Origin: an uncultured Acidobacteriota bacterium
GTDB taxonomy: Bacteria; Acidobacteriota; Terriglobia; Terriglobales; Acidobacteriaceae
Assembly (NCBI GenBank): GCA_963703735.1
Contig: CAVPFM010000007.1
Coordinates: 52,723 to 116,722 of the forward strand
Direction: 5' to 3'
DNA length: 64,000 nt
Shown: positions 23,685-54,159 of the stretch, piece by piece
Numbering within the stretch: the stretch's first letter is position 1
Layout: each line of letters starts with the position of its first letter
Translations under genes and position numbers: made by a program
Notes under the pieces: generated by a model
What the model saw: only the letters and a program-made list of their open reading frames with translations
Database searches by the model: none
What the model was told of the DNA's origin: nothing

Positions 23685-23759
23685 GAAAGGTCAGTCGGCG
23701 CGCTGTTCCCCCCGGCCAACCAGCAGCGCTCCGGGGCCACATCTCTCGCAGCCAACAGA

Positions 23760-25061: not shown

Positions 25062-25101
25062 GTTCTGCAGCGTGTGGGCCCTACTAGAGAAGCGCGGACC
25101 C

Positions 25102-27416: not shown

Positions 27417-27584
27417 ATGATCCTTGAGGCAGCGCGTCAGCTTTGGTCCGAAGAGCAGGGGCAGGACATCGCCGAATATGCAGTCATGCTGGCGGTGATC
27501 CTGGTGATCGTCGTCGGAACGATCCGGTTAATCGGGTCCAACGCCAACAATGTGTTCTCCAACGTCGCCAGTTCGATTCAGTAG
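27417..27584 (+). CDS. flp: Flp family type IVb pilin
   Basis: Start re-set to the ATG at 27417, with AGGAGA 7 nt upstream. 55 aa. Flp motif G-QDIA-EY followed by the hydrophobic helix AVMLAVILVIVVGTI. Confidence 0.88.
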   Translation: MILEAARQLWSEEQGQDIAEYAVMLAVILVIVVGTIRLIGSNANNVFSNVASSIQ

Positions 27585-27638
27585 CGAATAAAAACGCCCA
27601 AGTTCGACGGAAGCAGTGACGCAGTTTAAGGAAATGGA

Positions 27639-28508: not shown

Positions 28509-28582
28509 TCCGTAGAGATTCGATGTTGCTCAACGCCACGTTGCACACCGGTCAGTTTCCTCACAGGGAGACCAATCTGACA

Positions 28583-29977: not shown

Positions 29978-30047
29978 CTACGAATTCCTCTCGTGATGGG
30001 CTCGGCACGACAGGAGCAAGTCTTAACGTGAAGGGCCACAGATTGCT

Positions 30048-31220: not shown

Positions 31221-31233
31221 AATTTAGGGGCTT

Positions 31234-32529
31234 ATGGCAAATCTTCAATCGTTCGAGCGCACCGACATTCAGCAGGTGAAAGCCGACCTGCACCGCAAGG
31301 TTCTCGACCGTTTGGACCTGGAAAAACTAGGCAAGGCGGCCGGAGACTCGGCTCGCGATGAAGTCCTGGTAGTGATCCGTGCGGTGGTCAACGGCGAAGT
31401 CGTTCCTCTCAGCTTTGCTGAACGCGAACGTCTTTCGCGTGAAATTCTCGATGAGATCTTCGGCCTCGGTCCGTTAGAGCAACTCCTCAAAGATCCCAAC
31501 ATCTCCGATATCCTGGTCAACCGTTACGATCGGGTGTACGTGGAAAAGGCGGGCAAACTCGAACTCACCACGCTGACGTTCAAGGACAACGTGCACTTGA
31601 TGCAGATCATCGAGCGCATCGTTTCCCGCGTAGGCCGCCGCGTCGACGAGTCCTCTCCAATGGTTGATGCGCGCCTCACCGATGGCTCCCGTGTGAACGC
31701 CATCATTCCGCCGCTCGCCCTCGACGGTCCGTGTCTCTCCATTCGCCGTTTCGGACGTGAGCCAGTCACCGCGCGGCAGATGATTGAAAATCAGACGCTC
31801 ACCGAATCGATGCTGGAACTCCTCTCGGCCATGGTCAAGGGTCGCCTCAACATCCTGGTATCTGGCGGAACCGGCGCCGGCAAGACCACCCTGCTCAACG
31901 TGCTCTCGGGGTACATTCCTAACACTGAGCGCATCGTCTCCATCGAAGACGCGGCCGAATTGCAGCTCAAGCAGGAAAACATCGTCCGCCTGGAAACTCG
32001 CCCGCCCAACATCGAAGGCAAGGGCGCTGTCCGCCAGCGGCAGCTGGTCATCAACAGTTTGCGTATGCGCCCCGACCGCATCGTAGTTGGCGAGGTGCGT
32101 GGCGAGGAAGCCTTCGACATGTTGCAGGCCATGAACACGGGTCACGAAGGATCGCTCACCACGGTCCACGCCAACTCTCCGCGCGATGCCATGGCTCGTA
32201 TCGAAAACATGGTCTCGATGGCCAATCTCAACATTCCGGAGCGGGCCGTACGCCAGCAAATCTCCTCCGCCGTGCATGCGGTGATTCAAATTGCCCGCCT
32301 GTCCGACGGTACGCGCAAAGTGACCACGATCTCCGAAGTCACCGGAATGGACGCCGATTCGATTGCGATGCAGGACATCTTTTCCTTCGATCGCACCGGC
32401 ATTGATGAGAACGGAAAGGTCCGCGGTGCGTTTCGAGCCACCGGGACTCGTCCGAAGTTTGCCGATCGCTTGGCAACCGCAGGCGCCCGTCTACGGCCTG
32501 CGCTGTTTGAATCGAAGGCCGAGGTCTAG
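31234..32529 (+). CDS. cpaF: Tad secretion ATPase CpaF/TadA
   Basis: 431 aa. Walker [15 protein letters not shown], Asp box [12 protein letters not shown], Walker [13 protein letters not shown], His box [11 protein letters not shown]. Confidence 0.95.
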
Positions 32530-32536
32530 GTCCAAT

Positions 32537-33508
32537 ATGACTGCAGCTCTGATCGCGCTGGTTGTCTTCGGAGTGGTCGCGCTCCTCGCGTTCGCGGTGT
32601 TCTCTCTTCTTGATCAGCGCAGCGCGCAAGCCCGCTTGATCAAAGAGCGACTGGCCAACGAGCGCAAAGCTCCCGATCTTGCCGCCGACGAAGAACTGGC
32701 GCTGCTGCGGGACGAGCAACTCAGCCGAATCCCCGCCCTCGACAACCTGCTTCGCCGTTCGGCTCGCGTCTCCGACCTGCAGAAAATGCTGCTACAGGCA
32801 GGCATGGACATGCGCGCTGGAAATTTCCTGGGATTCTCGGCGCTCAGCGGAATCGTCGTCACCATCGTCACCTATATTCTCAGCAAGCGCGTTGAAATCG
32901 CGTGGATTGGCCTGCTCGTCGGCTTCGTCCTGCCGTATTCCTACGCTTCGTATAAGCGCAATAAGCGCTTCGAGAAGTTCGAGGAACTCTTCCCGGAAGC
33001 CATCGACACTCTGGCTCGCGCCGTCCGAGCTGGTCACGCCTTTACCACCGCGCTCGAGATGATTACCAGCGAAATTTCAGAGCCGATCGCCGGCGAGTTC
33101 CGGCAGCTCTATGAGGAACAGAAGTTCGGCATGCCTGTCCGCGATGCTCTGCTGAATCTGACGGACCGGATGCCGCTGGTCGACGTGAAATTTTTTGTAA
33201 CAGCTGTCATGTTGCAGCGCGAGACCGGCGGCAACCTCGCGGAAATTCTCGACAACCTCTCTTATGTCATTCGCGAGCGCTTCAAAATACAGCGCCAGGT
33301 TCGCGTATATACCGCCCAGGGCCGCCTTACGATGGCCCTCCTGATGGGCATGCCGCCCATCATCGTCACCGTGATGCTGGTGCTGAATCCCAGCTTCATT
33401 CACCCGCTGTTTGCGGATCCCATCGGCCACACTCTTTTGGTCGCGGGAATCACTTTGCAAACCATTGGATATTTCGTGATCCGGAAAATTATCCGGATTC
33501 AGGTTTAA
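32537..33508 (+). CDS. tadB: Tad platform protein TadB
   Basis: Start re-set to the ATG at 32537 (MTAALIALVVF...), 7 nt after the cpaF stop. T2SF-like domain with 3-4 TM segments. Confidence 0.85.
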   Translation: MTAALIALVVFGVVALLAFAVFSLLDQRSAQARLIKERLANERKAPDLAADEELALLRDEQLSRIPALDNLLRRSARVSDLQKMLLQAGMDMRAGNFLGFSALSGIVVTIVTYILSKRVEIAWIGLLVGFVLPYSYASYKRNKRFEKFEELFPEAIDTLARAVRAGHAFTTALEMITSEISEPIAGEFRQLYEEQKFGMPVRDALLNLTDRMPLVDVKFFVTAVMLQRETGGNLAEILDNLSYVIRERFKIQRQVRVYTAQGRLTMALLMGMPPIIVTVMLVLNPSFIHPLFADPIGHTLLVAGITLQTIGYFVIRKIIRIQV

Positions 33509-33510
33509 CT

Positions 33511-34422
33511 ATGCTGCCTCTGCTGCTGATTGTCGTCGTCTTCATCACCGTCGTGGTGGGCGTGTTCGCCTTCGGCGCTGCCGCCGTAACGCCGAGTTCC
33601 ATGCTGGGCGCCCGCCTCCGCGCTCTTGGTGGACAGCAGGCACAACCGGCGGAGAACCGTCCCGCCATCCGGGAACGCATTGAGCAGGCGCTCGATCCTC
33701 TCAGCAAAGCCATTCCGCTCTCCGCTTCCGACGTCTCGCGCACGCGCCGCTGGCTGATTCAGGCCGGCTTCCGCGATGCCATTGACGTCAATTACTACTT
33801 CGGCGTGCGTCTTTTGGCGGCCGCCGTTGGTTTCGTCGGAGTGGTCGTCTTCTCCGGATTTGCCAATCCATTTCTGCTCGCCGGCATCTCGGGACTTGGA
33901 TTCTTCCTTCCGCGCTTCATGTTGAAGCGCATGATTCGGGACCGCCAGAACCGCATTCGCCTCGGATTGCCCGATGCCCTTGACTTGACCGTCATCTGCG
34001 TTGAGGCTGGCTTGGCGCTCGATCAGGCTCTGATGCGCGTAGGCCAGGATTTGCACCACGCCCATCCCGACCTCAGCGATGAATTTCATCTTGTCAACCT
34101 GGAAATGCGCGCCGGCAAGCCCCGCGCCGAGGCTCTCCGCAATCTGGTGGAGCGCACTGGTGTTGACGATATCCGCTCCCTTGTTGGTACACTGATTCAG
34201 ACCGACCGCTTCGGTACCAGCGTCGCCCAGGCTCTCCGCGTGCATTCCGATTCCCTCCGCACGGAACGCCGGCAACGCGCCGAAGAACAAGCTGCCAAGA
34301 CCACCATCAAAATGGTCCCCCCACTGGTAATCTTTGTTCTGCCGTCGATCATTTTTGTCACGATCGGTCCCGCCGTGATCGAATTGATCCGGCAACTGGG
34401 GCCGGTTTCAGGCGGCCGCTAG
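33511..34422 (+). CDS. tadC: Tad platform protein TadC
   Basis: 303 aa. Starts 2 nt after the tadB stop. T2SF-like domain (LPDALDLTVICVEAGLALDQAL). Confidence 0.85.
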   Translation: MLPLLLIVVVFITVVVGVFAFGAAAVTPSSMLGARLRALGGQQAQPAENRPAIRERIEQALDPLSKAIPLSASDVSRTRRWLIQAGFRDAIDVNYYFGVRLLAAAVGFVGVVVFSGFANPFLLAGISGLGFFLPRFMLKRMIRDRQNRIRLGLPDALDLTVICVEAGLALDQALMRVGQDLHHAHPDLSDEFHLVNLEMRAGKPRAEALRNLVERTGVDDIRSLVGTLIQTDRFGTSVAQALRVHSDSLRTERRQRAEEQAAKTTIKMVPPLVIFVLPSIIFVTIGPAVIELIRQLGPVSGGR

Positions 34423-34458: not shown

Positions 34459-34857
34459 ATGGCAGTTCTCTCCAGCGAAGGGCAGGCTTTCAATCAGACG
34501 CGACAGGCCTACCTCGCCACGTCACTGGCCGTCGCCGACACCCACTGGACTCGCCTGCGTGGGCTGGTTGGCCTGGGGGCCGATGACTTCCGTAATGGTT
34601 CAGGACTCTGGATCGTTCCCTGCCATGGCGTTCATACTCTAGGGATGGGGTTTCCCATTGATGTTGTCTATTTGGATCGGGCCATGACGGTGATACACGT
34701 TCAACCGGAATTGCGGCCGTGGCGATTCGCTCCAGTGCGTAGACAGGCTGCGTCGGTCTTGGAACTGCCGTGTAACGTCGCTGCCGAGACTCGAACGGCG
34801 GTGGGCGATAGAATTGAAATCACTCTCGCAAAGGATCCCAGCCAGCCAACTGCATGA
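34459..34857 (+). CDS. DUF192 (COG1430) family protein
   Basis: 132 aa. Core GLWIVPCHGVHTLGMGFPIDVVYLD is typical of DUF192. The stop overlaps the next start (ATGA at 34854-34857). Confidence 0.7.
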   Translation: MAVLSSEGQAFNQTRQAYLATSLAVADTHWTRLRGLVGLGADDFRNGSGLWIVPCHGVHTLGMGFPIDVVYLDRAMTVIHVQPELRPWRFAPVRRQAASVLELPCNVAAETRTAVGDRIEITLAKDPSQPTA

Positions 34858-37394
34858 GCAGCGTTCTCCAACTCGACGAGGCGGTCACCGTTCGTGACGT
34901 CCGGGACGCTCCTCGCCTTCTGGTTGAGTGGTCCTCGCCCTGGCAGGAATTCGTCAGCTCCATCAAGCCGGCGCTGATGCGATCGGAAGCCCGTCTGGCG
35001 GGAGAAGCTCCGTTTGGATTGATTCCTCTGCGGATCATGGCGCCCTCGTATTTCCTCGAGGCATTTCTGATCCTGGCGGCAATCTTTGTGCAGTACAAAG
35101 TCGCTGAACTGCGCCCTTATGTCTCGCCGCGATTATCGCCCCATGACGTTATTTATTACACCGGCGACGAACTGCCTCGTACCGAAGATCTCGGCGGCGC
35201 TCAGGCGGGAACGGCAGGCCGCGCTGGCGGCGATGAGTCGCACCATCGCACCCAGACCATCAAGATCGCGCGCGGCGGATCTCTCACTCCGCGCGTAGTC
35301 GATGCGCCGAATCTTAAGCTCACTCCTACGCACGATGCCGTAGCGAACCTGCTGGCCGTCAAGCCCGATCCCGGTCCACCGCCTGCGGAAGGGTTGCGTT
35401 CTGCGCGCTCGGCTCCGAATCTCGCTACGTCGATTGTGGCCCCAGCTCCCAATGTCATTCGCGACTACACGCGCAACGGAGTTCAACTCGATTCCGTGAT
35501 TGCGCCCGCTCCGAATGTCACGCGCGATCGCACGCTGACTGCGCCGACTTTCAACGCGACACTGATTCCTCCTGCGCCCAGCGTTCCGGATGATCACAAG
35601 CTCGTCGCTCCCGCGCTGGCTCCGTCGGTCATTGCTCCTGCGCCGCGAGTTTCACGGGATCGCTCGCTTACCGCCCGGTCACTCGACCCATCGGTCGTAG
35701 CACCCGCTCCAAGCGTCGCGCGCGACCGGGCTCGTTCCAGCCCCGCGCTTTCCTCGAATGTGATTCCGCCCCCTGGCGCATTCAGCCGCGAAATCTCTAG
35801 CACGCCCGTGCAGATGACGAATACGTCGGCGGTGCCTCCGCCCGTTTCCGCGCCCGAGCGCGCCACACTCCGGAATCCGAAGCTGTCGCTGCCATCGCCT
35901 TCCGTGGTCGCTCCTCCACCTTCATCCGACATCTCCCCCGACATGCGCCGTCTCGCGAGCGGTAGCGTACAAGATCCTGCGAAGACCGTCGTCCCTCCAC
36001 CGCCATCACAATCCGGCAGCGGAACGTTCATGAGCAGTCTGATCGGCAAGATTTTTGGAGCCACCGAGGTTGTGCCTCCGCCACCGTCCGTGAACACAGG
36101 AAGCACCCCCGGCGGACCGTCAACCTCACTCTCCAGCGATGTCGTCCCGCCTCCGCCCACAGTCGGCTCGGCGGCGGCTGGTGGTAATCCACGTGGCAGT
36201 CGCAACGGTGCCGGCGCATCGCTCGGTGCCAATGCGGTGGCTCCGCCTCCGGCCGTTGGAGCAAATGGCGGCACCGGCGCTCGTGCCAATGGCGCTGCGC
36301 CCTATCTCGGAAATCCCGGCGTGGTCCCGCCGCCCCCGTCGCTCTCGGGAGCAGGCGGCGGCACCGGCAACTCGGGAGGCGGCGCCGGCGCTCCCGGAGG
36401 AACTCTGCTCGCTAACAATATCGTGCCTCCGCCGCCATCAGTTGGCGGAGGATCGGCTGCGGGCGGGTCGGGTTCTGGCCGCAAGGGCGCTGGACTCGGC
36501 GCTCCCACGGATGTTGGCGCCGGTCTAACCCCGCCCACTAACGGCGGCAGCGGGACCAATGCTGGCGCAGTCATTTCCACTCAGCCCGGAGCCAAAGTCG
36601 GCATGCCCACCAGCGGCGGCTCAGGGTCGCTCGCGATGTCCCCCTCTGGGGCAGACAAATCCGGACTAGGTGGTGTGGGCAGCGGAACCGGCATCGGCCG
36701 CGACAACGGCCCCGGCAGCTCTCTCAATGGTCAAGGCGGCGGCGCTGCGAAAACCGGCGCCGGGCGCGGCTCCGATCCAAGCTCGAACGGAGGCATTTCT
36801 CCGACCCCGGGACCAGGAGGGGCTGGAAATTTGACTGCGGGTAACCCGCCCGTCCGGGGCGTCGACATCAGCGGTGGCAGCAGCATTGTCACCCTGCCTG
36901 GATTTGGCTCGGACAGTGGCGTAGCTAGCGAACCTGCTACACCGGGTCGCACCCCTGTGAAACAGCGAGACGCGCTGGGCGTAACGGTCGTAGCAACAGC
37001 CAGTTCCGGCGGAGCCTTCGAGCCTTACAAGAATCTTCTCCGCGGCGAGAAGTACACCACCTATTTGGATACGACGCTCGGGACGGTTGTCATGGAATTT
37101 GCCGACGAATCGACCACGGGGCATCCTTTCGGCGGAACTCTAGCCGCGCCAACGCCGATTAAAACCGATCTCGCGGAGGGCCTGCCCCGCGCGCGCATGG
37201 TCGTCACCTGCACGCTCGACGCGTCCGGCAATCTTAGAAATATCCGTGTTCTCGAAGCTGGACCCGCCACAATGACCGCCAAGGTTGTCGCAGCGCTCCG
37301 TGCCTGGAAATTCCAGCCCGCAACGCGAGGAACTCAGGCGGTGGAAGTAACCGCAATCCTGGGCTTCGGAATCGACACCAACGACCGCTTCTAA
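34854..37394 (+). CDS. Giant membrane-anchored Pro/Gly-rich protein with a C-terminal TonB-C-like domain
   Basis: 846 aa. One TM segment (SYFLEAFLILAAIFVQY, about aa 65-81). Fourteen [IVA][IV][AP]P[AP]P.. repeats, then a long Gly-rich stretch. The last 90 aa or so resemble TonB_C (MVVTCTLDASGNLRNIRVLEAGP...VVAALRAWKFQPATRGTQAVEV). Confidence 0.75.
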   Translation: MSSVLQLDEAVTVRDVRDAPRLLVEWSSPWQEFVSSIKPALMRSEARLAGEAPFGLIPLRIMAPSYFLEAFLILAAIFVQYKVAELRPYVSPRLSPHDVIYYTGDELPRTEDLGGAQAGTAGRAGGDESHHRTQTIKIARGGSLTPRVVDAPNLKLTPTHDAVANLLAVKPDPGPPPAEGLRSARSAPNLATSIVAPAPNVIRDYTRNGVQLDSVIAPAPNVTRDRTLTAPTFNATLIPPAPSVPDDHKLVAPALAPSVIAPAPRVSRDRSLTARSLDPSVVAPAPSVARDRARSSPALSSNVIPPPGAFSREISSTPVQMTNTSAVPPPVSAPERATLRNPKLSLPSPSVVAPPPSSDISPDMRRLASGSVQDPAKTVVPPPPSQSGSGTFMSSLIGKIFGATEVVPPPPSVNTGSTPGGPSTSLSSDVVPPPPTVGSAAAGGNPRGSRNGAGASLGANAVAPPPAVGANGGTGARANGAAPYLGNPGVVPPPPSLSGAGGGTGNSGGGAGAPGGTLLANNIVPPPPSVGGGSAAGGSGSGRKGAGLGAPTDVGAGLTPPTNGGSGTNAGAVISTQPGAKVGMPTSGGSGSLAMSPSGADKSGLGGVGSGTGIGRDNGPGSSLNGQGGGAAKTGAGRGSDPSSNGGISPTPGPGGAGNLTAGNPPVRGVDISGGSSIVTLPGFGSDSGVASEPATPGRTPVKQRDALGVTVVATASSGGAFEPYKNLLRGEKYTTYLDTTLGTVVMEFADESTTGHPFGGTLAAPTPIKTDLAEGLPRARMVVTCTLDASGNLRNIRVLEAGPATMTAKVVAALRAWKFQPATRGTQAVEVTAILGFGIDTNDRF
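35433..36443 (+). repeat. Fourteen coding repeats of the motif V-V-(A/P)-P-(A/P)-P-(S/N)-V
   Basis: IVAPAPNV, VIAPAPNV, LIPPAPSV, VIAPAPRV, VVAPAPSV, VIPPPGAF, AVPPPVSA, VVAPPPSS, VVPPPPSQ, VVPPPPSV, VVPPPPTV, AVAPPPAV, VVPPPPSL and IVPPPPSV, at aa 194-530. The first five have a period of about 22 aa. Confidence 0.9.
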
Positions 37395-44707: not shown

Positions 44708-47155
44708 TTAGTGTCGCCCTCCGCCACCGCCGCCGCCGCCGTGGCCTCCATGCCGGCCTCCGCCACCACCGCCGCTGCGGCCTCCGCGACCACGACCTCG
44801 GCCACCGCCGCCACCGCCGCCTGGACGTCCTCCACGGCCACCGCGATCTCCTCCACGGTCACCGCCTCGGGGACGCTCTCCAGCGCCAGCTCCAACCGGC
44901 GGAGCCCCGCCTTCACGATTGAAGTTAGGCTCATCCGGATCATCCGGAAAATCACCGCCGCCTTCGATCACCAGCGTTCCAGCCGGAAGCGGTTCGCCGC
45001 CCTCTTCCGCAGGAACTGCCGGAGCAGCTTCTCCGCCGCCCGAGGCCGCCATCTTCGCGCGCTGCTCTTTCAAAATCGCTTTGCGCGAGAGCCGTATGCG
45101 ATTGCCTTCGACGGCCAGCACCTTTACCAGCACCTGATCGCCTTCCTTCAACTCGTCGCGAACGTCAGCGATCCGATGCTCCGCCACTTCGCTGATGTGC
45201 AACAGGCCCTCCGTGCCCGGAATGATCTCGACGAATGCGCCGAAATCCGCCAGCCGCGTAACCTTGCCAAGGTAAGTCTTCCCGACTTCTGCTGTCGCCG
45301 TGATGTCGCCGATAATCTGCAGCGCCTTCGCCGCCGAAGCCTGATCGCTCGACGCCACCTTGACCAGTCCGGAATCTTCCACGTCGATCTTCACTCCTGT
45401 CTGCTCCACGATGCTGCGGATCATTTTCCCGCCCGGCCCAATCAGATCGCGAATCTTGTCGGTTGGGATCTGCACCGTGTAGAACCTCGGCGCGTAATCG
45501 GAAATCTTCTCGCGGCCCGTCGTGATCACTTCCTCCATCTTGCCGAGGATGTGCATCCGTCCGCGCTGCGCCTGCGACAGCGCCTCGCGCATGATCTGCG
45601 CCGTGATCCCCGCGACTTTGATATCCATTTGCAGCGCGGTAATTCCGTCCTTCGTTCCGGCAACTTTAAAGTCCATGTCGCCGTAGTGATCTTCCGCGCC
45701 CGCGATGTCGGTTAGGATGGCGTAATCGCTGCCTTCTTTTACCAATCCCATCGCAACGCCGGCCACCGGAGCCTTCAGCGGAACGCCTGCATCCATCAGC
45801 GAAAGTGAAGCTCCGCAGACGGTCGCCATCGATGACGATCCGTTCGATTCCAGAATGTCCGAAACCACGCGCATCGCATAAGGCCACTTCTCTTCCAGCG
45901 GCAACACTGCTGAGAGCGCCCTCTCCGCCAGCGCTCCGTGTCCAATCTCGCGCCGTCCCGCACCACGCATAAACGCCACTTCCCCAACCGAAAACGGCGG
46001 AAAATTATAGTGCAGCATGAAGCGCTTTTTGGCTTCGCCTTCGAAACCTTCGAGGCGCTGCATGTCGTCGCTGGTGCCGAGGGTAGTTGTGACCAGGGCT
46101 TGGGTTTCGCCGCGGGTGAAGATTGCGCTGCCGTGCGTCCGCGGAAGGACTCCGGCTTCGATCCAGATTTCGCGGACCTGGTCGAACGCGCGTCCATCGG
46201 GACGGCGCTTCTGATTGATCACCGCCTCGCGGAAGATGCGCTCGCGCAGCGTTTCGTAGTAGTGATCGAGCTTGCGCTTGGCTACTTCGTCGCCTTCGGG
46301 CAGCTCGGCTGCCAGCTTCTTCTTGATGTCCTTCACCAGCGTGTAGCTCTCGGCCTTGGGATGCTTCTTGGTATCGAGCGCGTCGGTGAGTTGCTCGCCC
46401 ACCTTGCCACGCAGGCTGTTGTAGTAGGCGTCATCGAACTGCGGAGGCTCGACTTTACGCTTCGGCTTCCCTGCCTTGTCGCGCAGCTCGTTGATCCCTG
46501 CGCAGACTTTCTTGATCTCGGTGTGTCCGAACTCGATCGCGTCGACAACCGTTTCTTCTTTTACTTCTTTCGCGCCCGACTCGATCATCACGATGCCATC
46601 CGCGGTGCCGACCACCATGATGTTCAGCAGGCTCTCTCGCATTTCGTCGTAGGTTGGATTGACCACGAACGACCCATTCACCAGGCCCACGCGCACTGCG
46701 CCAATCGGGCCAAGGAACGGAATGTCGGAAACGGTCAGAGCCGCCGAAGCGCCATTGATACCGCAAACATCGGGATCGTTATTCGTATCCGCGGAGAGTA
46801 CGAACGCGATGACCTGCGTCTCGCACTTGAATCCCTCGGCAAACATTGGACGCACTGGCCGATCAATCTGCCGGCTGGTGAGGACTTCGCGCTCGCTCAT
46901 CCGGCCTTCGCGCTTGATGAAGCCGCCAGGGAAACGTCCGCCGGCGTAGGTGTACTCGCGATAGTCCACGGTGAGGGGAAAGAAGTCGATGCCTTCGCGC
47001 GGGTCGGCGTTGGCGGTAGCGGTGGCGAGAACGACGTTCTCGCCCATGCGGACGACAGCGGATCCATGGGCCTGCTTGGCCAATTTTCCCGTTTCAAATG
47101 AGATGGATTTTCCGCCGGTCAGACTGACTGTAACTACGGTTGGATCTGGTTTCAT
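44708..47155 (-). CDS. pnp: Polyribonucleotide nucleotidyltransferase (PNPase) with a ~116-aa Gly/Arg-rich C-terminal extension
   Basis: 815 aa. Two RNase PH domains, a KH domain and an S1 domain (GKVTRLADFGAFVEIIPGTEGLLHISE). Then an acidic/Pro segment and the tail ...RGGDRGGDRGGRGGRPGGGGGGGRGRGRGGRSGGGGGGRHGGHGGGGGGGGRH. Confidence 0.95.
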   Translation of the reverse strand: MKPDPTVVTVSLTGGKSISFETGKLAKQAHGSAVVRMGENVVLATATANADPREGIDFFPLTVDYREYTYAGGRFPGGFIKREGRMSEREVLTSRQIDRPVRPMFAEGFKCETQVIAFVLSADTNNDPDVCGINGASAALTVSDIPFLGPIGAVRVGLVNGSFVVNPTYDEMRESLLNIMVVGTADGIVMIESGAKEVKEETVVDAIEFGHTEIKKVCAGINELRDKAGKPKRKVEPPQFDDAYYNSLRGKVGEQLTDALDTKKHPKAESYTLVKDIKKKLAAELPEGDEVAKRKLDHYYETLRERIFREAVINQKRRPDGRAFDQVREIWIEAGVLPRTHGSAIFTRGETQALVTTTLGTSDDMQRLEGFEGEAKKRFMLHYNFPPFSVGEVAFMRGAGRREIGHGALAERALSAVLPLEEKWPYAMRVVSDILESNGSSSMATVCGASLSLMDAGVPLKAPVAGVAMGLVKEGSDYAILTDIAGAEDHYGDMDFKVAGTKDGITALQMDIKVAGITAQIMREALSQAQRGRMHILGKMEEVITTGREKISDYAPRFYTVQIPTDKIRDLIGPGGKMIRSIVEQTGVKIDVEDSGLVKVASSDQASAAKALQIIGDITATAEVGKTYLGKVTRLADFGAFVEIIPGTEGLLHISEVAEHRIADVRDELKEGDQVLVKVLAVEGNRIRLSRKAILKEQRAKMAASGGGEAAPAVPAEEGGEPLPAGTLVIEGGGDFPDDPDEPNFNREGGAPPVGAGAGERPRGGDRGGDRGGRGGRPGGGGGGGRGRGRGGRSGGGGGGRHGGHGGGGGGGGRH

Positions 47156-47514
47156 GAATTGATTTCCTTTGGAGTGCTTAGAGCCGTGAGCCTTGAGCTA
47201 GGAGCGAGCGGGCGCCACATCCTTCGCGGTTTTCGAAGGGTGAGGATGTTGACGTAAGGTAGGCACACCTCACCCGACATCACCCTGGTGTGGAGATAGG
47301 CTGCGCTTGAAAAACGCACGTGTGGAGATTTCCTCGATGCTGCCGTTTCACCAGAAACGGCGCTCAGAAATAGCCCCGGGAAAGAAAGTTTCAAGGTTTC
47401 GAGATTCTCAATGTTTCAAGGTTCCGTTGGAAACCTTGAAACGTTGTCACTTTGAAACCTGGATGGATGCCCGCCGGTCGACGTTGTCGAAGCGAAGGGA
47501 TTCCCGGGTCAAGA
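47156..47514 (-). promoter_or_regulatory. Structured rpsO-pnp intergenic leader (multiple hairpins)
   Basis: 359 nt. Hairpin GTTTCAAGGTTCC-gtt-GGAAACCTTGAAAC (47413-47442), with extra arm copies at 47388-47400 and 47452-47460. GCCGTTTC-acca-GAAACGGC at 47342-47361. GGGTGAGG/CCTCACCC at 47238-47275. Confidence 0.5.
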
Positions 47515-47781
47515 CTACTTGCGGATGCCGAGTTTGGTAATGACGGTCTTGTATTTCTCGGTATCGTATTTCTTGAGGTAGTCGAGCAAGCTACGGCGCT
47601 TGCTGACCAGCATGAGAAGTCCGCGGCGTGAACCGTGGTCTTTCTGGTGCGTCTTGAAGTGCTCCGTCAACTGTCCAATACGTTCGCTAAGCAGGGCGAT
47701 CTGAACCTCGGGGCTGCCGGTATCGCTCGCAGTTCTCCCGTACTGGTCAATGAGGGATTTCTTTTGCTCTCTGGCTAACAC
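47515..47781 (-). CDS. rpsO: 30S ribosomal protein S15
   Basis: 88 aa, GTG start. S15 signature [48 protein letters not shown]. Confidence 0.95.
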
Positions 47782-47891
47782 TAAACTGGTGCACTCCTGT
47801 TCTTAATCGATTGTCTTTGTGACGCTTACGAGGATATCACGGGGGCTTGAAGACGGTAAAGGCTAAGCCGCGTCGATCGATTCCAGACCCC

Positions 47892-47950
47892 GGGGGGTGC
47901 CCCACCCTTCTTTCGCGTTCTTTGCGAAAGAGGGTGGGGATTCTGATTTT
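47892..47950. repeat. Palindromic element family, copy C
   Basis: GGGGTGCCCCACCCTTCTTTCGCgttctttGCGAAAGAGGGTGGGGATTCTGATTTT forms a stem of about 16 bp (47900-47916 / 47924-47939). Upstream of rpsO. Confidence 0.8.
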
Positions 47951-48253
47951 CGTGGACGACCAAGAAAATCGCTGCCCGAGCGACGCTTGGAGCGGCGCAC
48001 CCCCGAAACGAGAGGAGTAGGCTGGGGCCATGAAACCATGCATCTTTTGTGGCACGCCGTCCGATTCCAAGGAGGATTTGTTTCCGCGTTGGATTCTGAA
48101 GCGGGTCGTCACTCGCCAGCCGCTCTATCGCAAGATGGGGGACATGCAGCACGTCTCCGTGTCGCCAGCGAAAAACCCCAAATTCCCCTTGCCCGCTCCA
48201 ACGTTGCGAGCTAACGTGTGGTGCCCGAATTCGTTCGACAGGAGTTCACCCCT

Positions 48254-48688
48254 ATGTCGGCCGACGAAAACATCCAACTGATGCGCCGCTGGTTTCAGGA
48301 AGTATGGAATGAGGGCCGAACCGATACGATTCGCGAGTTGCTGGCTCCGAATGCGGTAGCCATCGGACAAAGAGGCGCGGACGCGAAGATTCACGGGCCA
48401 GAGGAATTCGATGCGTTCGTGCGCGAAATTCGCGGCGCGTTTCCGGATATCAGAGTCACCGTCGAAGACGTCTTTGGCGCCGGCGATAAAGTTGTCCTGC
48501 GCTGGTCGGCAGTTATGACTCACACGGGAGCTGCGCCTGGCCTTCCTGCCAGTGGCCGCACGGTGCGAAGTCGAGGCATCACGATCGCGCGGATTGTTGA
48601 CGGAAAGATCGTCGAGGGCTGGGATAACTGGGACCAACTCGGAATGCTCCAGCAAATCGGCGTGTACCCACAGCCCGTCGCAGCGTGA
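48254..48688 (+). CDS. SnoaL-like / ester cyclase family protein
   Basis: Start re-set to the ATG at 48254, with GGAG 9 nt upstream. Family hallmarks: N-terminal NIQLMRRWFQEVWNEGR and C-terminal GKIVEGWDNWD. Confidence 0.75.
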   Translation: MSADENIQLMRRWFQEVWNEGRTDTIRELLAPNAVAIGQRGADAKIHGPEEFDAFVREIRGAFPDIRVTVEDVFGAGDKVVLRWSAVMTHTGAAPGLPASGRTVRSRGITIARIVDGKIVEGWDNWDQLGMLQQIGVYPQPVAA

Positions 48689-48753
48689 GGCATATGCGGG
48701 ATACTGGGCCCTGAGGTTTTAGGCCTTGGCTTGCCGCCAGCACGAAAGCGGCT

Positions 48754-48787
48754 GCCCCCACCTTTGACGCTTTCGAATCGTGGGGGC
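48754..48787. repeat. Divergent palindromic element, copy D
   Basis: GCCCCCAC-ctttgacgctttcgaatc-GTGGGGGC, between convergent genes. Confidence 0.5.
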
Positions 48788-48793
48788 TTCGGC

Positions 48794-49723
48794 TTACGCG
48801 GCCTCCAGGGCCTTGCGGTCCCACTTCGCCGTGGTCGCTCCCGCATCGTATGTGCTCTGGAGAAACTCGAGCAACGCCGTGCTTGGCGATTTCGCACTCC
48901 TGACGTCGTCATACATCAAGAGGTACTCGCCCATGCCAGAGTGATAGAACGCCTCGCCAGGTCGCACGGTTTGTTCAGCGAATCCGGGCGCGGCGGGCGC
49001 GGCATAGCAATAGAACGCCGCTTCTTTGACCTCTCCGCCGCCGGGCCACCAGCCTGCGCTGATCACCTCATGCGAATACGCCTCCTGCATGATCTTGCGG
49101 AGGACCGGATCGGCGTCGTTACGCTCGGGAGCGCGCCGGCCTGAAAAACGCGTAACCGCCAGATCGAAGCTACCCCAGAAGAAATGCACGGGACTGGACT
49201 TGCCGATGAAACGCGAACGGAAGACTTTGAATACATCGTCCGCCGAGAGCAGAATCCGCCATAACCGCCGTGCGGATTCGCCATCGTAAGCAGCGTGAAC
49301 CGTATCCTGATCGAAGGGGATGGGATCGGCGACTTCCACTGGCACCTTCCAGATTTGTACCTCGATATCCAGCGAGCGGAGCGCGGACCTCAGTTCGCTG
49401 TAAAAATCGGCCACCGAACGCGGCGCTAGCGCTACAGACGCGGTCTTCGGATCGGAAGTACGAATCACCAGCTTGCTCTGGTGAAAATCAAACTCCATTT
49501 CGAAGGAGCGGCTTCCGTAAGGCATCATGGAGGTTGTGAGCCCGCATGAACTCACGTACAGCGGCACATTCCACCAGTGATTCACCTTCGGGGTGAGTGC
49601 GAGGCGTATCTTTCCGACGATCTGCGTCCACATGTGCAGCGTGGCGCAGGTGTCTTTCCAGTCAGCCAGCCGAAGCATCGGCCAGCATTCCGACAAATCC
49701 GAGATGTTGGTTGCCTTGGTCAC
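48794..49723 (-). CDS. DUF5996 family protein
   Basis: Conserved N-terminal region WPMLRLADWKDTCATLHMWTQIVGKIRLALTP. Preferred start is the GTG at 49723, with AGGAG 6 nt upstream. The track start, TTG at 49765, overlaps the cpaF2 stop. Confidence 0.7.
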   Translation of the reverse strand: MTKATNISDLSECWPMLRLADWKDTCATLHMWTQIVGKIRLALTPKVNHWWNVPLYVSSCGLTTSMMPYGSRSFEMEFDFHQSKLVIRTSDPKTASVALAPRSVADFYSELRSALRSLDIEVQIWKVPVEVADPIPFDQDTVHAAYDGESARRLWRILLSADDVFKVFRSRFIGKSSPVHFFWGSFDLAVTRFSGRRAPERNDADPVLRKIMQEAYSHEVISAGWWPGGGEVKEAAFYCYAAPAAPGFAEQTVRPGEAFYHSGMGEYLLMYDDVRSAKSPSTALLEFLQSTYDAGATTAKWDRKALEAA

Positions 49724-49761
49724 GGAATGCTCCTGTGAGTCTCGCAGCAGTTTCTCACCGT

Positions 49762-51120
49762 TCAACTCCGCTTTCGGCCGAGTTGATCGAACATGTCTAT
49801 TGGCAGATCGTATCCTGCGGCCTTGAGGCGCTCAGCAAATTTGGGACGGATTCCAGCCGCAGTGAAAGCTCCTACCACGCGGCCTTCCGCGGAAACTCCC
49901 TGTTTCTCGAAAGTAAACAGATCCTGCATGCTGACGACGTCAGACTCCATGCCGGTGATCTCGGTAATGTGCGTCAGACGCCGCGTGCCGTCGGTGAAGC
50001 GCGCTACCTGAAGGATCAGGCTCACCGCCGACGCGATCTGCTTGCGAATGGCTTTTTCTGGCAAGTTCAGGTTCGTCATCATAGCCATGGTTTCAATGCG
50101 AGCGAGAGCGTCGCGCGGGCTGTTGGCGTGGATCGTGGTCATCGATCCGTCATGGCCGGTGTTCATCGCTTGCAACATGTCGAGAGCTTCTTCGCCCCGC
50201 ACCTCGCCAACCACGATGCGATTGGGCCGCATGCGGAGGCTGTTGATCACCAACTGCCGCGCGTGAACGGCTCCCTTGCCGTCCGGATCGGGAGGACGGC
50301 ATTCCAGCCGGACAACGTGCCGCTGCTTCAGTTGCAACTCCGCGGAGTCTTCGATGGTGACGATGCGTTCTTTTGCCGAGATATATCCGGAAAGGACGTT
50401 GAGCAGCGTCGTCTTGCCCGCACCTGTTCCGCCCGAGATGATGATGTTGAGACGCGCTGCCACCGCGGCTTTCAGCAGCGACAGCATGGGCGCGGTCAGA
50501 GTCTGATTGGCGACGAGGTCGGCGTCGGTGATAGGAGTGTGGCCGAAGCGGCGGATCGAAAGATGAGGACCGTCGAGCGCCAGCGGCGGAAGGATGACGT
50601 TGACGCGGGATCCGTCGGCTAGGCGGGCATCGACCATGGGAGAAGACTCGTCGACGCGGCGTCCGATCGCGGAGACGATCTTCTGGATGATGCGCATCAG
50701 GTGCGCGTCGTCCTTGAAGACAACTTTGGTTTCCTCGAGCATTCCGCCGCGCTCGACGTAGACTTCTTTGGCGCCATTGACCAGGATGTCGCTCACGCCG
50801 GGATCTTGCAGCAGCGGCTCAAGCGGGCCGAGTCCGAAGACTTCTTCGAGAATTTCGCGGGAGAGTTGCTCTTTCTCTGGAGCGGAAAGTGGGGCTTTGA
50901 GATGCGCAACCACGTCCTGAATGACGGCGAACACCTGGAAGCGCGTGCGGTCGTCGGGAACGGCAGCGATCTGTTCGAGATCGAGTTTATTGAGCAGGTA
51001 GCGATGGATCCCGTGCTTGAGATCCTGATAGGCGCGAAAGTCGAGTCCGGCGGGCTTTTGAGGCAGGCCTGAAGTGAGAGGCTTGGCCGCGAGCGAGGGA
51101 GCTATTTCAGGCTTGCCCAT
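49762..51120 (-). CDS. Second, orphan CpaF/TadA-family secretion ATPase
   Basis: 452 aa. Alignable by eye with cpaF (31234-32529) over the whole core. Shared runs include [59 protein letters not shown] and HANSPRDA. No other tad genes are adjacent. Confidence 0.9.
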
Positions 51121-51237
51121 AGATATTCAATACCACGACAAGGCAAGAATTGTAGGGCTCGGCCAGAGGAAAGGAAAGCCCTGCGTCTCATCGCCGCGGC
51201 TGGCTGAGAGAAGCAGGGCTGATTCGTGGTGCGCTGA

Positions 51238-51996
51238 CTAGCCGACGAGCGTGAAATTGACTTGCACTTGGGTCTCGACTTCGACTGGCTGCTGGTTCAG
51301 CCGATAGGGTTTGTACTTCCACTGCTTCACGGCTTCGATGGCTGCGGGCGCGAGTTCGGGATGTCCGCTGATCAGTTCGATATTCTCGACATCGCCTTCC
51401 TTGCTGACGATGACCTTGAGAATGACAACGCCTTGAATGTGGGAATCCTTGGCTGCTTGCGGGTAAATCGGTGGCACTTTCTTGGCAACGAATGCGGACT
51501 CCACGCTCGATGAGACGCGTACGCGCTGCGGAGGAGGAAACAGTTTGCCCGAATCGACAGCGCCGACAATTCCTCCTTGTTGCCCGGGTTTGGCTCCGCC
51601 GGGAATGTCACCCGCAACCCCTTCCGCGGCAGGCTTATCGGAAAGCGTGAAGTTTACCGTGACCTGAGTTTCCACCGCGATAGGATCGCCGTTCAGAAGA
51701 TACGGTTTGTACTTCCACTGCTTGACGGCTTCGATGGCTGCAGGAACAAGCATGGGGTGTCCGCTGAGCATCTCAATGTTCTCAACGTCTCCGCCTTTTG
51801 TGAGTCGCACTTTCACTACAACCGTGCCCTGAACCCTCGCCTTGCGAGCGGCCTCGGGATAGATTGGTGGCACCTTTTTCAGGACGTAGCCCGACATGAC
51901 GTCTCTGGAAACGCGTACGCGCTCAGGGTGAACTTGAGCAATGGCGATCGAGGCGCAACCGATCAGGAGAAAAGATGCTGCGAGACGACGGGACAT
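51238..51996 (-). CDS. Secreted protein with two tandem TonB-C-like domains
   Basis: Start re-set to the ATG at 51996 (GGAGG SD sequence; signal peptide MSRRLAASFLLIGCASIAIAQ). Two ~93-aa repeats (aa 26-118 and 157-250) share KKVPPIYP, GDVENIE, SGHP, PAAIEAVKQWKYKPY and VNFTL. Confidence 0.8.
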   Translation of the reverse strand: MSRRLAASFLLIGCASIAIAQVHPERVRVSRDVMSGYVLKKVPPIYPEAARKARVQGTVVVKVRLTKGGDVENIEMLSGHPMLVPAAIEAVKQWKYKPYLLNGDPIAVETQVTVNFTLSDKPAAEGVAGDIPGGAKPGQQGGIVGAVDSGKLFPPPQRVRVSSSVESAFVAKKVPPIYPQAAKDSHIQGVVILKVIVSKEGDVENIELISGHPELAPAAIEAVKQWKYKPYRLNQQPVEVETQVQVNFTLVG

Positions 51997-52079
51997 TGAG
52001 ACCTCCACAGACGTGATGTCGCGGGTCGTTCGAGACCCGTTTCGTGTACCGGGGATTGGACCGCTGGGAACCTGCGTTA

Positions 52080-52892
52080 TTAGACGCCGATATGATCGGA
52101 TTTGTTCCCGGAGATGCGCGATACGAATCCCGCGATCGCTTCGAGAACGGCTTCGGGCTGATCGCGTTGCGGAGAGTGACGGCAATCCGGAAGAGCGAGA
52201 ATCACAACCGGTCCTGCACTCTGCTTCGCGATGGCTTCCACTTGGGCCATGGTTCCGTACTGGTCGTTGAGGCCCTGAATCACGAGGATCGGGCAGGTAA
52301 TGCGCGGGAGATATTCTTCGATGGTCCAGCAGCGGAAGTCGGGATGAAGCCAGATGTCGTTCCATCCCCAGAAGGTTCGGGCGGCGTCGCGATGATGACG
52401 GGCGAGTTTCTCCGGCACGTTTGTGGTCCGGAATTTCACTTTGGCTTCGGCGATGCTAGTCACGCTGAGGCCCTCGACAAAAACGTGAGGCGCAAGAAGG
52501 ACAAGACCAAGCACGCGATCGTGGGCTCCAGCGTGGATGAGAGCGATGGAGGCTCCGTCGCTGTCGCCGATCAGGATGGGTTCATCGATTTCGAGTTGCC
52601 CCAAAAGATCGGGGAGAGTAGTGAGGGCTTCGTCGTGCATGTAGGTTACGGCGCGAGCTTCGGCGAGCAGGTCTGAATTGCCGGAACCGTAGCGCGAATA
52701 AACGGAGACCGGACATCCCGTGGCATCGGCGACGCGCGCGGGAAAATCTTTCCAGTGTGAGACCGAGCCGAGGCCTTCATGCAGAAAGACCAGCTCTGGA
52801 GCTTGCGGGACGCGTCCCGGGACGCGGAAGACTTCAAGGCTGTGGCCTTGGACGGTGAGTTGGAATGTTTGGCAGTTGGGGGCTGGATTCAT
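52080..52892 (-). CDS. Alpha/beta hydrolase
   Basis: Start re-set to the ATG at 52892 (MNPAPNCQTF...), because the track extension overlaps the divergent gene. Oxyanion-type FLHEGLGS; nucleophile elbow GDSDG. Confidence 0.75.
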   Translation of the reverse strand: MNPAPNCQTFQLTVQGHSLEVFRVPGRVPQAPELVFLHEGLGSVSHWKDFPARVADATGCPVSVYSRYGSGNSDLLAEARAVTYMHDEALTTLPDLLGQLEIDEPILIGDSDGASIALIHAGAHDRVLGLVLLAPHVFVEGLSVTSIAEAKVKFRTTNVPEKLARHHRDAARTFWGWNDIWLHPDFRCWTIEEYLPRITCPILVIQGLNDQYGTMAQVEAIAKQSAGPVVILALPDCRHSPQRDQPEAVLEAIAGFVSRISGNKSDHIGV

Positions 52893-52965
52893 ATTGGCGC
52901 ACGGCGTCTTGATACTGCATCGAAGGTTCAAGATATCGTAAGCTATAGACAGGCACAGGAGGGAT

Positions 52966-54159
52966 ATGCGCTGCGCTCGCTGCGGCAATGAAAATCCGGA
53001 GGAGAACCGCTTCTGCGGGATGTGCGGGGCCACGTTATTGGCGACGCCCGCCGTGGCAGAGACACAGACCCAGCGCGCAGCCGGCGCGAGCCCTGTCCTT
53101 CCCACACCGGTAACGACTCCCCCAACACCTTCGGTGCCGCGCCAGGTTGACGGGCCTCGTCCTGTCCCTCCGCCTCCTCGAGATCCGCCAACCATCAGTG
53201 GACCTTCGTTTTTGGGCTTGAATGATCCGGGTCCGCGGAAGCGCGCCAGCTTAAGCATTGATCCACACGCTCCGGGATCGAGGGGCATCGACTATCTTCT
53301 GGATGATGAAGAGGAGCCGAGAAGCGGAGGCGCGGGAAAGTTCATTCTGATCCTGATCGCTCTCGCGTTGGCCGTGGGCTTCGGATATTTGCGCTGGAAG
53401 AACCAGGGGTTTGCGTGGCTGAATACGGGTGGGCACAAGCCTTCGGCTGCGGCACAAAGTCCGAGCGATGCTGATACCGGTACTCCTTCTAGCTCGCCCG
53501 CCAGTTCTCCGGCCAATTCGCCAGCGGCGGGGTCTCCGAGCATGACTCCGGACGCGCAAACACCAGCAGCGAACCAGCCCGCGGCGACACAGCCGGCTAC
53601 AACGCCCGCGCAGCCGCCCTCAGCAACGGGTCCTAGCGGGAATACAGCGGCGAATCCGCCTGGGGGAACGGGGACGGCATCGCCATCGAGTGCAGCTCCG
53701 GCGAAGAGCGACAATTCAAACGCGGCCAAAGCGAATCCGCCAGCCGATTCAGATGATTCGGATACAGCGGATGACAATGACACCGCGACGGCTGCAGCAA
53801 AGCCGGCGAAACCGGCGGCAAAGCCGTCCGCGGCGGCGCCGAAGCCGGTTCGGACCGGCGATCCGGTGAGCGAAGCGCAGAGATATCTCTACGGGAAGGG
53901 CTCGCCTCAGGATTGCGATCGCGGGCTGCGGATTTTGAAGCCCGCCGCGAATGAAGCAAATCCGAAGGCCATGATCCAAATGGGAGCGCTTTATTCCGCG
54001 GGGTTGTGTACGCCGCGCGACCTGCCGACGGCGTATCGCTGGTTCGCTCTAGCGCTGCGCAAGGATCCAGACAACATGGCGGTGCAGACGGATCTGCAAA
54101 AATTGTGGGGAGAGATGACGCAGCCGGAGAGGCAGCTGGCGATCAAGTTGTCGCAATAG
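52966..54159 (+). CDS. Zinc-ribbon / TM / low-complexity / Sel1-repeat protein
   Basis: 397 aa. N-terminal MRCARCGNENPEENRFCGMCG. One TM segment (FILILIALALAVGFGYL). A P/A/S-rich linker. C-terminal Sel1-like repeats (IQMGALYSAGLCTPRDLPTAYRWFALAL). Confidence 0.7.
   Translation: MRCARCGNENPEENRFCGMCGATLLATPAVAETQTQRAAGASPVLPTPVTTPPTPSVPRQVDGPRPVPPPPRDPPTISGPSFLGLNDPGPRKRASLSIDPHAPGSRGIDYLLDDEEEPRSGGAGKFILILIALALAVGFGYLRWKNQGFAWLNTGGHKPSAAAQSPSDADTGTPSSSPASSPANSPAAGSPSMTPDAQTPAANQPAATQPATTPAQPPSATGPSGNTAANPPGGTGTASPSSAAPAKSDNSNAAKANPPADSDDSDTADDNDTATAAAKPAKPAAKPSAAAPKPVRTGDPVSEAQRYLYGKGSPQDCDRGLRILKPAANEANPKAMIQMGALYSAGLCTPRDLPTAYRWFALALRKDPDNMAVQTDLQKLWGEMTQPERQLAIKLSQ

Follow-up and report, generated by a model that had tools for sequence, protein, structure and literature searches.

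Why would a genome carry a complete gene for a pilus motor outside any pilus operon? The question is raised by a stretch of 64,000 nucleotides (nt) from an uncultured soil bacterium of the Acidobacteriota (contig CAVPFM010000007.1, positions 52,723 to 116,722), referred to below as the window. Its gene cpaF2 (49762-51120, minus strand) encodes a solitary CpaF/TadA-family secretion ATPase and lies about 17 kb from a tad operon that has a motor gene of its own, cpaF1 (31234-32529, plus strand). One ATPase has been described for both extension and retraction of Tad pili, by a mechanism that is debated (PMC6920026, PMC11300603, PMC12019362). In the inversion model of a 2026 preprint, CpaF reverses pilus dynamics by flipping which of its faces is presented (bioRxiv 10.64898/2026.02.24.707734). 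The reading that we consider probable is that cpaF2 would be a functional, stand-alone and independently transcribed paralogue of the Tad motor ATPase that acts in trans.

The product of cpaF2 has 452 amino acids and matches the Pfam family T2SSE (PF00437) with E=7e-63. In phmmer comparisons its residues 31-438 align with residues 82-490 of the Caulobacter CpaF structures (9e24/8rjf; E=3e-129), the N-terminal three-helix bundle and the C-terminal motif included; FlaI and GspE are far weaker matches (about 1e-36). Neither motor of the window reaches the 373.15-bit cut-off of the NCBIfam model TIGR03819 (TadA family conjugal-transfer-associated ATPase), CpaF2 scoring 343.1 bits and CpaF1 335.3. 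The catalytic set, as judged from alignments to CpaF1 and Caulobacter CpaF, is complete: Walker A (GGTGAGKTT, amino acids 230-238, encoded at 50407-50433 on the minus strand), Asp box, Walker B, His box (TGHDGS) and R347. A first-pass annotation of this DNA had described a full-length CpaF paralogue with intact ATPase motifs some 17 kb from the tad operon, and Pfam, the structure alignment and the motif check all agree with it. The N-terminal 20-30 residues vary in length and sequence across the clade of solitary genes described below. The ancestral start (ATG GCT GC. TCT AAC CGA) has become ACG in three of the loci compared (L084, L086 and L090; for example L090:2540-2640), where gene callers pick a downstream ATG.

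The gene also stands alone. Outside the tad operon, a scan for the Flp motif and tblastn searches with type-2 Tad proteins found no pilin, secretin, platform, RcpC or prepilin-peptidase gene in the window (the window's own type-1 Tad proteins were searched against related loci only). The Flp motif G-x4-EY occurs at a single site, 27459, and no Tad gene was found within 10 kb of cpaF2. The earlier statement that cpaF2 has no pilin, secretin or platform genes beside it therefore holds for this window-wide scan.

Descent and setting of the solitary cpaF genes

The first-pass annotation had proposed a phylogeny of CpaF paralogues. We built neighbour-joining trees with Kimura correction from at least 250 CpaF sequences with a known or inferred genomic context. 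The solitary cpaF genes form one clade of 118 sequences, monophyletic in 100 of 100 bootstraps of a 56-taxon subset, and the reading frames of all 118 members are intact. This clade is nested among the cpaF genes of type-2 tad operons, those of L088, L089, L091, L092 and L121 being nearest, then those of L093-96, and then those of L100-102 and L004. Bootstrap support is 86-100% for the successively larger clades that enclose the solitary genes and 45% for the immediate type-2 sister group alone. CpaF1 sits in a clade distant from CpaF2.

The CpaF2 of the window is 78-83% identical to the CpaFs of type-2 operons (80% to that of L088, whose operon has three flp genes and an A24 prepilin peptidase), and close protein matches are labelled Candidatus Sulfotelmatobacter (Terriglobia, Acidobacteriota). 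The first-pass annotation had allowed for CpaF2 orthologues that always sit in complete independent tad loci; the relatives at 78-83% identity do sit there, but the orthologues do not always. The trees show one old solitary cpaF lineage in Terriglobia, among relatives of Candidatus Sulfotelmatobacter, that split from the cpaF of type-2 operons and has since passed on as a unit of one gene in changing surroundings. The simplest history would be that a type-2 cpaF was duplicated or displaced once and gained a promoter, and was then inherited vertically for a long time while its flanks turned over.

The surroundings were compared in 23 related loci (24 gene copies) that carry a gene of the CpaF2 clade with at least 1.5 kb on each side. 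The set includes ten loci with an S15 protein identical to the window's, L081 (94% identical) and 11 further loci at 78-86%. Genome and metagenome scans each gave at least 600 matches, so that a gene missing from the best 80 loci tells nothing about which cpaF genes a genome carries in all. No tad gene lies within 5-10 kb in any of the 23 loci, and tad remnants are likewise found in none. The solitary gene occurs in at least six genomic contexts across the set. It lies near dnaA (L086, L171), between genes for an arylsulfotransferase and urocanase (L084), beside ftsK (L087), beside an SRAP gene (L005) and, in L090, in a region without annotation that lacks tad genes. Among these loci the neighbourhood of cpaF2 is not conserved, which the first-pass annotation had named as an outcome that would tell against its proposal of a functional tie between CpaF and TonB_C proteins. 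On the contig of L085, some 320 kb stand between cpaF2 and a type-1 tad operon, so the 17-kb distance in the window is not conserved either. The presence of cpaF1 and cpaF2 on the same contig is confirmed for the contig of length 704,996; judged by length, a contig of 96,843 and four more may also carry both.

Genes turn over often between cpaF2 and rpsO, a hotspot that contains Y1 transposases and restriction/methylase-like, TIR and caspase-like genes across strains. In the closest relatives a convergent SnoaL-like gene follows cpaF2 directly, with gaps of about 84-420 nt; in the window a DUF5996 gene intervenes before the SnoaL-like gene (48218-48688, plus strand). A 376-kb metagenomic contig (L177) carries two copies of cpaF2 12.6 kb apart (122-1480 and 14075-15433; 94.2% and 92.5% identical to the window's), one in a setting like the un-inverted arrangement and the other like an inverted arrangement that is described below; this is a true inverted duplication or else two strains joined in a chimeric assembly. 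Five loci have, beside cpaF2, a pair of genes for secreted proteins of 378 and 146 amino acids without Pfam matches (L083:4128-5717, L085:8211-9801, L169:8116-9704, L001:7495-9104 and L170:11359-12935), the smaller protein having a weak PstS-like match. In three loci the pair lies upstream in divergent orientation, and in the other two it lies downstream and is convergent. It was considered as a partner of cpaF2 and set aside, since neither the window nor the other contexts contain it.

Transcription and constraint of cpaF2

Upstream of cpaF2, on the same strand, lies a gene for a secreted TonB_C protein. It is followed by a probable intrinsic terminator (51168-51220, minus strand), a hairpin AGCCCTGC...GCAGGGCT and then TTTCCTTTCC, with a folding energy of -40.3 kcal/mol (z=-3.8). 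A hairpin after the TonB_C stop codon is also present in L081 and in the ten closest relatives, where the stem sequence differs while the pairing is kept and a T-rich tract stands behind it; we read it as an intrinsic terminator because of the preserved pairing and the T-rich tract. A sigma-70-like promoter of cpaF2 is predicted at 51149-51177 (minus strand), with a -10 element TACAAT (51154-51149), a 17-nt spacer and a degenerate -35 element TTTCCT (51177-51172). From CCTACAAT, about 20 nt beyond the terminator, to the ATG of cpaF2, the sequence is invariant in the window, L081 and the ten closest relatives, and the -10 element and the 5' untranslated region are identical across all ten loci L172-L181.

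The upstream motif extends to the whole range of contexts that was checked. The pattern GATTGTTTTCC-N12-CCTAYAAT(TCT), or a close variant of it, is found upstream of cpaF2 in ten of ten loci (the window, L081, L083, L085, L001, L005, L084, L086, L087 and L090, the -10 element of L090 being TATACT), in surroundings that are otherwise unalignable. We read GATTGTTTTCC-N12-CCTAYAAT as TTGTTT, a 17-nt spacer and TAYAAT. Among 88 loci, the exact promoter pattern gives six hits, all of them upstream of a solitary cpaF. We read the conserved motif as a putative sigma-70-type promoter that would travel with cpaF2. In many solitary loci the flanking genes are on the strand opposite to cpaF2. The predicted terminator and promoter support the view that cpaF2 is a one-gene transcription unit, independent of the TonB_C gene, and a promoter of its own would uncouple its expression from the tad operon. 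Shared regulation with that operon was considered and rejected, as the cpaF2 promoter motif is found nowhere else in the window at up to three mismatches and the region upstream of flp carries TTGTCA...TATGAT instead. An Rfam scan of 47000-53500 gave two chance-level hits, with no riboswitch or leader upstream of cpaF2.

The coding sequence is under constraint. Between the window and its closest relatives, CpaF2 is 90-94% identical at the amino-acid level, the ratio of nonsynonymous to synonymous substitution rates (dN/dS) is 0.05-0.10 and dS is about 0.5-0.8, that is, unsaturated. The housekeeping gene pnp gives similar values in the same comparison (93-96% amino-acid identity, dN/dS 0.04-0.09, dS 0.47-0.56), and the narrower figures of 0.05-0.06 for cpaF2 at dS 0.5-0.8 and 0.04-0.06 for pnp are likewise close. 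Against its orthologues overall, cpaF2 has a dN/dS of 0.05-0.13 at divergences up to dS above 1.

The catalytic motifs with Walker A, loop 8 (GRRVDESSP), P386/R387 (NSPRDA), the beta13-beta14 turn and the C-terminal motif are conserved in every group compared. The tip of the extended pore loop reads PPDPDG in CpaF2 (amino acids 276-281, encoded at 50278-50295 on the minus strand) and PPN[I/V]EG in operon-borne CpaFs. In Caulobacter numbering, N329, a hydrophobic residue at 330 and E331 are near-invariant in 165 operon-borne CpaFs, and among the 118 members of the solitary clade they vary or give way to other residues. The window has N329D/I330P/E331D, with loop 8 (G204, R205, R206, D208) and G334 conserved. 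Of 231 columns that are conserved in the 165 operon-borne CpaFs, four are changed or relaxed in the solitary clade: column 129; column 197 in alpha5 (D/E to N/Q/H); and columns 329 (N to N/D) and 330 (I/V/L to A/P) in the pore loop. The substitutions that are fixed and specific to the clade are two, Y41 and K132, neither of them in a known motif, and the pore-loop signal surfaced only on looking for loss of conservation.

Weighing the possible roles of CpaF2

As a motor that acts in trans, CpaF2 would form a hexamer of the PilT/VirB11 type, hydrolyse ATP, and dock on a TadB/TadC platform that is encoded elsewhere, where it would drive the dynamics of Flp pili. The candidate platforms are the type-1 operon 17 kb away and a type-2 locus outside the window. 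The ancestry of cpaF2 points to a type-2 machine, and the sole platform that is visible is that formed by the type-1 TadB/TadC.

Several observations weigh against this reading. CpaF2 has a low likeness to the resident motor, with 64% identity to CpaF1, and its closest operon-borne relatives belong to another tad type, type-2, of which none is visible in the window. A generic promoter scan of 48600-52400 made no sigma-70 call, because the -35 element of the window is degenerate; the predicted promoter emerged only on comparing relatives. The loss of otherwise invariant residues at the platform-contacting tip may mean that CpaF2 is not an ordinary extension motor. The last point concerns constraint. 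Between the window and contig Ga0556619_0000009, CpaF1 is 97.9% identical (dN/dS 0.013, dS 1.30), tadZ, tadB and tadC products are 89-92% identical (dN/dS 0.03-0.06, dS 1.0-1.9), and CpaF2 is 80.9% identical (dN/dS 0.113, dS 1.20), so that in the same two genomes the dN/dS of cpaF2 is about 9-fold above that of cpaF1. cpaF2 is clearly kept by purifying selection, and it is far less constrained than the motor of the operon.

The changes at the pore loop suggest a more specific role, as a specialised second motor, although we regard this as rather doubtful. After the duplication, CpaF2 would have lost engagement through its extension face, and its C-terminal face would drive a retraction-biased or modulatory action, which would make it a Tad counterpart of PilT as a duplicate of PilB. 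Yen et al. predicted that alpha5 and the pore loop contact the platform proteins in the extension orientation (PMC12019362), and retraction in Caulobacter depends on residues of the C-terminal face, namely P386, R387, the beta13-beta14 turn and the C-terminal motif (bioRxiv 10.64898/2026.02.24.707734). Three of the four altered columns fall in the predicted platform-contact elements, alpha5 and the pore-loop tip, an enrichment (hypergeometric p=0.006; 0.004-0.045 at other thresholds) that comes from a post hoc test, reflects about three substitution events on one stem branch and is a lead, not a result. On the C-terminal face, 0 of 25 conserved columns are changed in the solitary clade. The roughly 9-fold relaxation of constraint relative to cpaF1 and the predicted promoter of its own would also fit such a motor. 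However, the bifunctional CpaF of Caulobacter itself has Q at 197, E331 is mostly swapped for the conservative D, and seven members of the solitary clade retain the ancestral NVEG tip, while three more keep V330 but have lost E331. The first-pass annotation had suggested an alternative or retraction-like motor; a genuine, conserved paralogue does exist and the extension-face changes lend that idea weak support, but the argument from the gene neighbourhood, on which it was based, does not stand.

The altered platform-contact residues would also suit an ATPase that has left the Tad system and now serves another envelope machine or has a regulatory role, and no Tad partner gene accompanies cpaF2 in any context. 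Its occasional neighbours include a weak prepilin-like N_methyl protein (L005) and a PilZ-domain protein encoded 1.5 kb downstream of cpaF2 in L171 (12806-13498), a 28%-identical homologue of which is encoded 3.6 kb upstream in L005 (1585-2301). The proximity of PilZ genes in two loci may be chance, and the PilZ and N_methyl neighbours were rejected as partners because they occur in one or two loci only. We think a function outside Tad unlikely, given that no alternative partner recurs across contexts, that loop 8, the arginine finger and the C-terminal face show the same conservation as in operon-borne CpaFs, and that the fixed clade-specific substitutions are so few.

Could cpaF2 instead be a relic, the last gene of a decayed second tad locus with no present function? 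Its descent from the cpaF genes of type-2 operons and its weaker constraint relative to cpaF1 would be expected of a relic, and decay of this kind does occur: in L002 (3437-7221) a type-2 cpaF is cut at its 5' end (the match begins at residue 47) beside an IS21-family element (IstA/IstB), with no tad genes around. L002 is a genuine case of the break-up of a tad operon, separate from the solitary lineage. But the solitary genes arose once, with a promoter motif in common, and not by many independent decays, none of the 23 loci holds tad remnants, and dN/dS stays at 0.05-0.11 to dS above 1, similar to pnp, with frames intact throughout the clade. These observations make a relic very unlikely.

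The remaining proposal concerns the two genes that flank cpaF2. The first-pass annotation gave the same-strand order as a TonB_C gene, a 117-nt gap, cpaF2 and DUF5996, and this is confirmed. The upstream gene (51238-51996, minus strand) encodes a secreted protein of 252 amino acids with two bona fide TonB_C domains (Pfam TonB_C twice, E=1.7e-43), a likeness to TonB and TolA transducers. A canonical TonB has a membrane anchor, a proline-rich spacer, one TonB_C domain and ExbB/ExbD; here the N-terminus, as read from sequence, resembles a signal peptide, anchor and spacer are lacking, and no ExbB or ExbD is found among the annotated open reading frames around the gene. In NCBIfam it matches the tonB_Cterm domain alone, with 58.9 bits against a cut-off of 265 for the full-length TonB models. 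It is not a canonical TonB. Downstream of cpaF2, the open reading frame 48794-49765 (minus strand) matches DUF5996 end to end. The first-pass annotation had left its start between a TTG that overlaps the cpaF2 stop and a GTG 38 nt downstream. The GTG at 49723 is the start, since four orthologues align from there and GGAG stands 7 nt upstream, and the overlapping TTG is rejected by the same alignment. The resulting protein (48794-49723, minus strand) has 309 amino acids and matches Pfam DUF5996 with E=2.6e-133; it has no match in PDB or NCBIfam.

An iterated TonB_C profile finds two open reading frames with this domain in the window, 34854-37394 and 51238-51996, each near a cpaF gene, as the first-pass annotation had noted. 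It had taken this repeated association to be functional, and had offered a distinct minimal system that uses DUF5996 as one possibility. TonB_C is directly upstream of cpaF2 in 12 of the 23 loci, all of one species-level cluster at 90% identity or more (the window, L081 and L172-L181). In three of the ten closest relatives an inversion has put the block hydrolase-TonB_C-cpaF2 beside pnp, and the adjacency of TonB_C and cpaF2 is kept even there. Outside that cluster, at 78-86% identity, TonB_C is never adjacent: two genes on the opposite strand stand between it and cpaF2 in L083 and L085, other genes do so in L001, and the flanks of 8 of 11 loci (L169, L170 and six loci in unrelated contexts) lack it. 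Type-2 operons, from which cpaF2 derives, have no TonB_C gene nearby. The 252-amino-acid protein is 80-84% identical between the window and its closest relatives, with a dN/dS of 0.12-0.17, and evolves 2-3 times faster than cpaF2. For DUF5996 the association is looser still. It lies within 300 nt of cpaF2 in two of the 23 loci (the window, 38 nt, and L085, 292 nt) and at 1.8-3.8 kb in three, which makes four loci besides the window within 4 kb, and it is absent from the other 18. All ten closest relatives, in which no remnants of it are found, as well as L081 and L083, lack it. The three genes stand adjacent in the window only.

A module of TonB_C, CpaF2 and DUF5996, be it a minimal system or a pairing of CpaF with TonB_C that recurs at the two cpaF genes, is hence largely refuted and hardly credible: the occurrence of both TonB_C genes of the window near a cpaF gene, the adjacency that outlasts an inversion, and a DUF5996 gene that begins 38 nt past cpaF2 with no terminator between them would speak for it, but TonB_C adjacency is confined to one species-level cluster, a predicted terminator hairpin and a separate predicted promoter lie between the TonB_C gene and cpaF2, and DUF5996 is missing from the closest relatives, with no pilin or platform gene at the locus. 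The TonB_C gene is a probable separate transcription unit and a bystander, and DUF5996 is probably co-transcribed with cpaF2 in this genome only. Both are most likely tied to cpaF2 by local synteny and not by function. Adjacency to a solitary cpaF gives no ground for assigning pilus-related functions to its neighbours.

The tad operon of the window and known pilus motors

The type-1 tad operon (27417-34422, plus strand) comprises flp, cpaB/rcpC, cpaC, tadZ, cpaF1, tadB and tadC (Pfam RcpC, Secretin, ParA-like/TadZ, T2SSE and two T2SSF). No A24 prepilin peptidase (TadV/CpaA) is found in the whole window (1-64000), so the type-1 machine must depend on a peptidase encoded elsewhere, nor can TadE/F pseudopilin genes be recognised in the operon or close to it. 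At its 3' end (34459-37394, plus strand; Pfam) lie a DUF192 gene and a gene for a TonB-like protein of 846 amino acids, its start sharing 4 nt with the DUF192 stop. A hydrophobic segment lies close to the N-terminus of this protein, the long middle part is rich in Pro, Gly and Ala, and a TonB_C domain forms the C-terminus. Of 28 type-1 operons with a CpaF1 of at least 80% identity, 24 have this large TonB_C protein (34854-37394) after DUF192; of 29 more distant operons, none does. Its gene is the conserved last gene of the type-1 operon in close relatives, and the protein may be a lineage-specific Tad accessory protein. On the other side of the operon, divergent from flp, are genes for two GT87-family glycosyltransferases and an FHA-GAF-SpoIIE (PP2C) phosphatase (21996-27202, minus strand). 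The same arrangement precedes the type-1 operon in L182, and GT87 genes precede the type-2 operon in L088; these genes could serve pilin glycosylation or the regulation of pilus genes. The remaining genes of the window are housekeeping genes, among them pst/phoU, ppk, ppx, pnp, rpsO, acs and NDH-2.

CpaF2 belongs to the same family as CpaF/TadA, the bifunctional motor of Tad (type IVc) pili in Caulobacter crescentus (PDB 9e24, 8rjf, 8rkd), and shares its domain layout of three-helix bundle, N-terminal domain and catalytic domain. It differs from the Caulobacter protein in being encoded outside a tad locus, as a one-gene unit with a predicted promoter of its own, and in coexisting with CpaF1. 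Its pore-loop tip has PPDPDG in place of PN[I/V]EG and varies across its clade, and position 197 in alpha5 has lost its acidic residue.

Second CpaF paralogues are known from second tad loci. Sinorhizobium meliloti flp-2 (pilA2-cpaF2-cpaG-cpaH) is such a locus with its own cpaF (PMC10934763), and the orphan Tad genes described in the same paper are a pilin and a CpaM-like gene, not an ATPase. Like flp-2, the type-2 operons of Terriglobia (L088, L089, L091, L092, L121 and L004) encode a second CpaF paralogue, but there the ATPase has its own pilin and platform genes, whereas the solitary cpaF2 has none within 10 kb in any of the 23 loci. A likeness may also be seen to PilT and PilU of type IVa pili, which arose when the extension ATPase was duplicated and whose genes often lie apart from the pilus operon (PMC6920026). 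CpaF2 is likewise a duplicated motor apart from the assembly genes and predicted to be transcribed independently of them, with changes that cluster on the predicted extension face while the opposite face is kept. It nonetheless belongs to another subfamily (54.9 bits against the pilT_fam cut-off of 319) and diverges only slightly from its operon-borne relatives, at about 80% identity. In a full-text literature search of incomplete coverage, no conserved lineage of solitary cpaF genes was found to be described. A cpaF within a second tad locus and a separate PilT in type IVa pili are already known; the solitary cpaF clade and its pore-loop change may be new.

The finding rests on this clade and on the pore-loop change, not on the TonB_C and DUF5996 neighbours. 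If CpaF2 is merely a spare copy, a lone "CpaF family protein" in Terriglobia would still mark a real gene lineage and would not be a sign of a hidden or broken pilus locus. A widespread and selectively maintained duplicate of CpaF, predicted to be separately transcribed and with its sole notable changes at the predicted contacts of the extension face, is a natural experiment on motor specialisation, and the idea of a second motor is topical because of the recent proposal that CpaF flips the face it presents. If that idea proved true, these Acidobacteria would have a natural two-motor Tad system, an independent replay of the origin of PilT from PilB.

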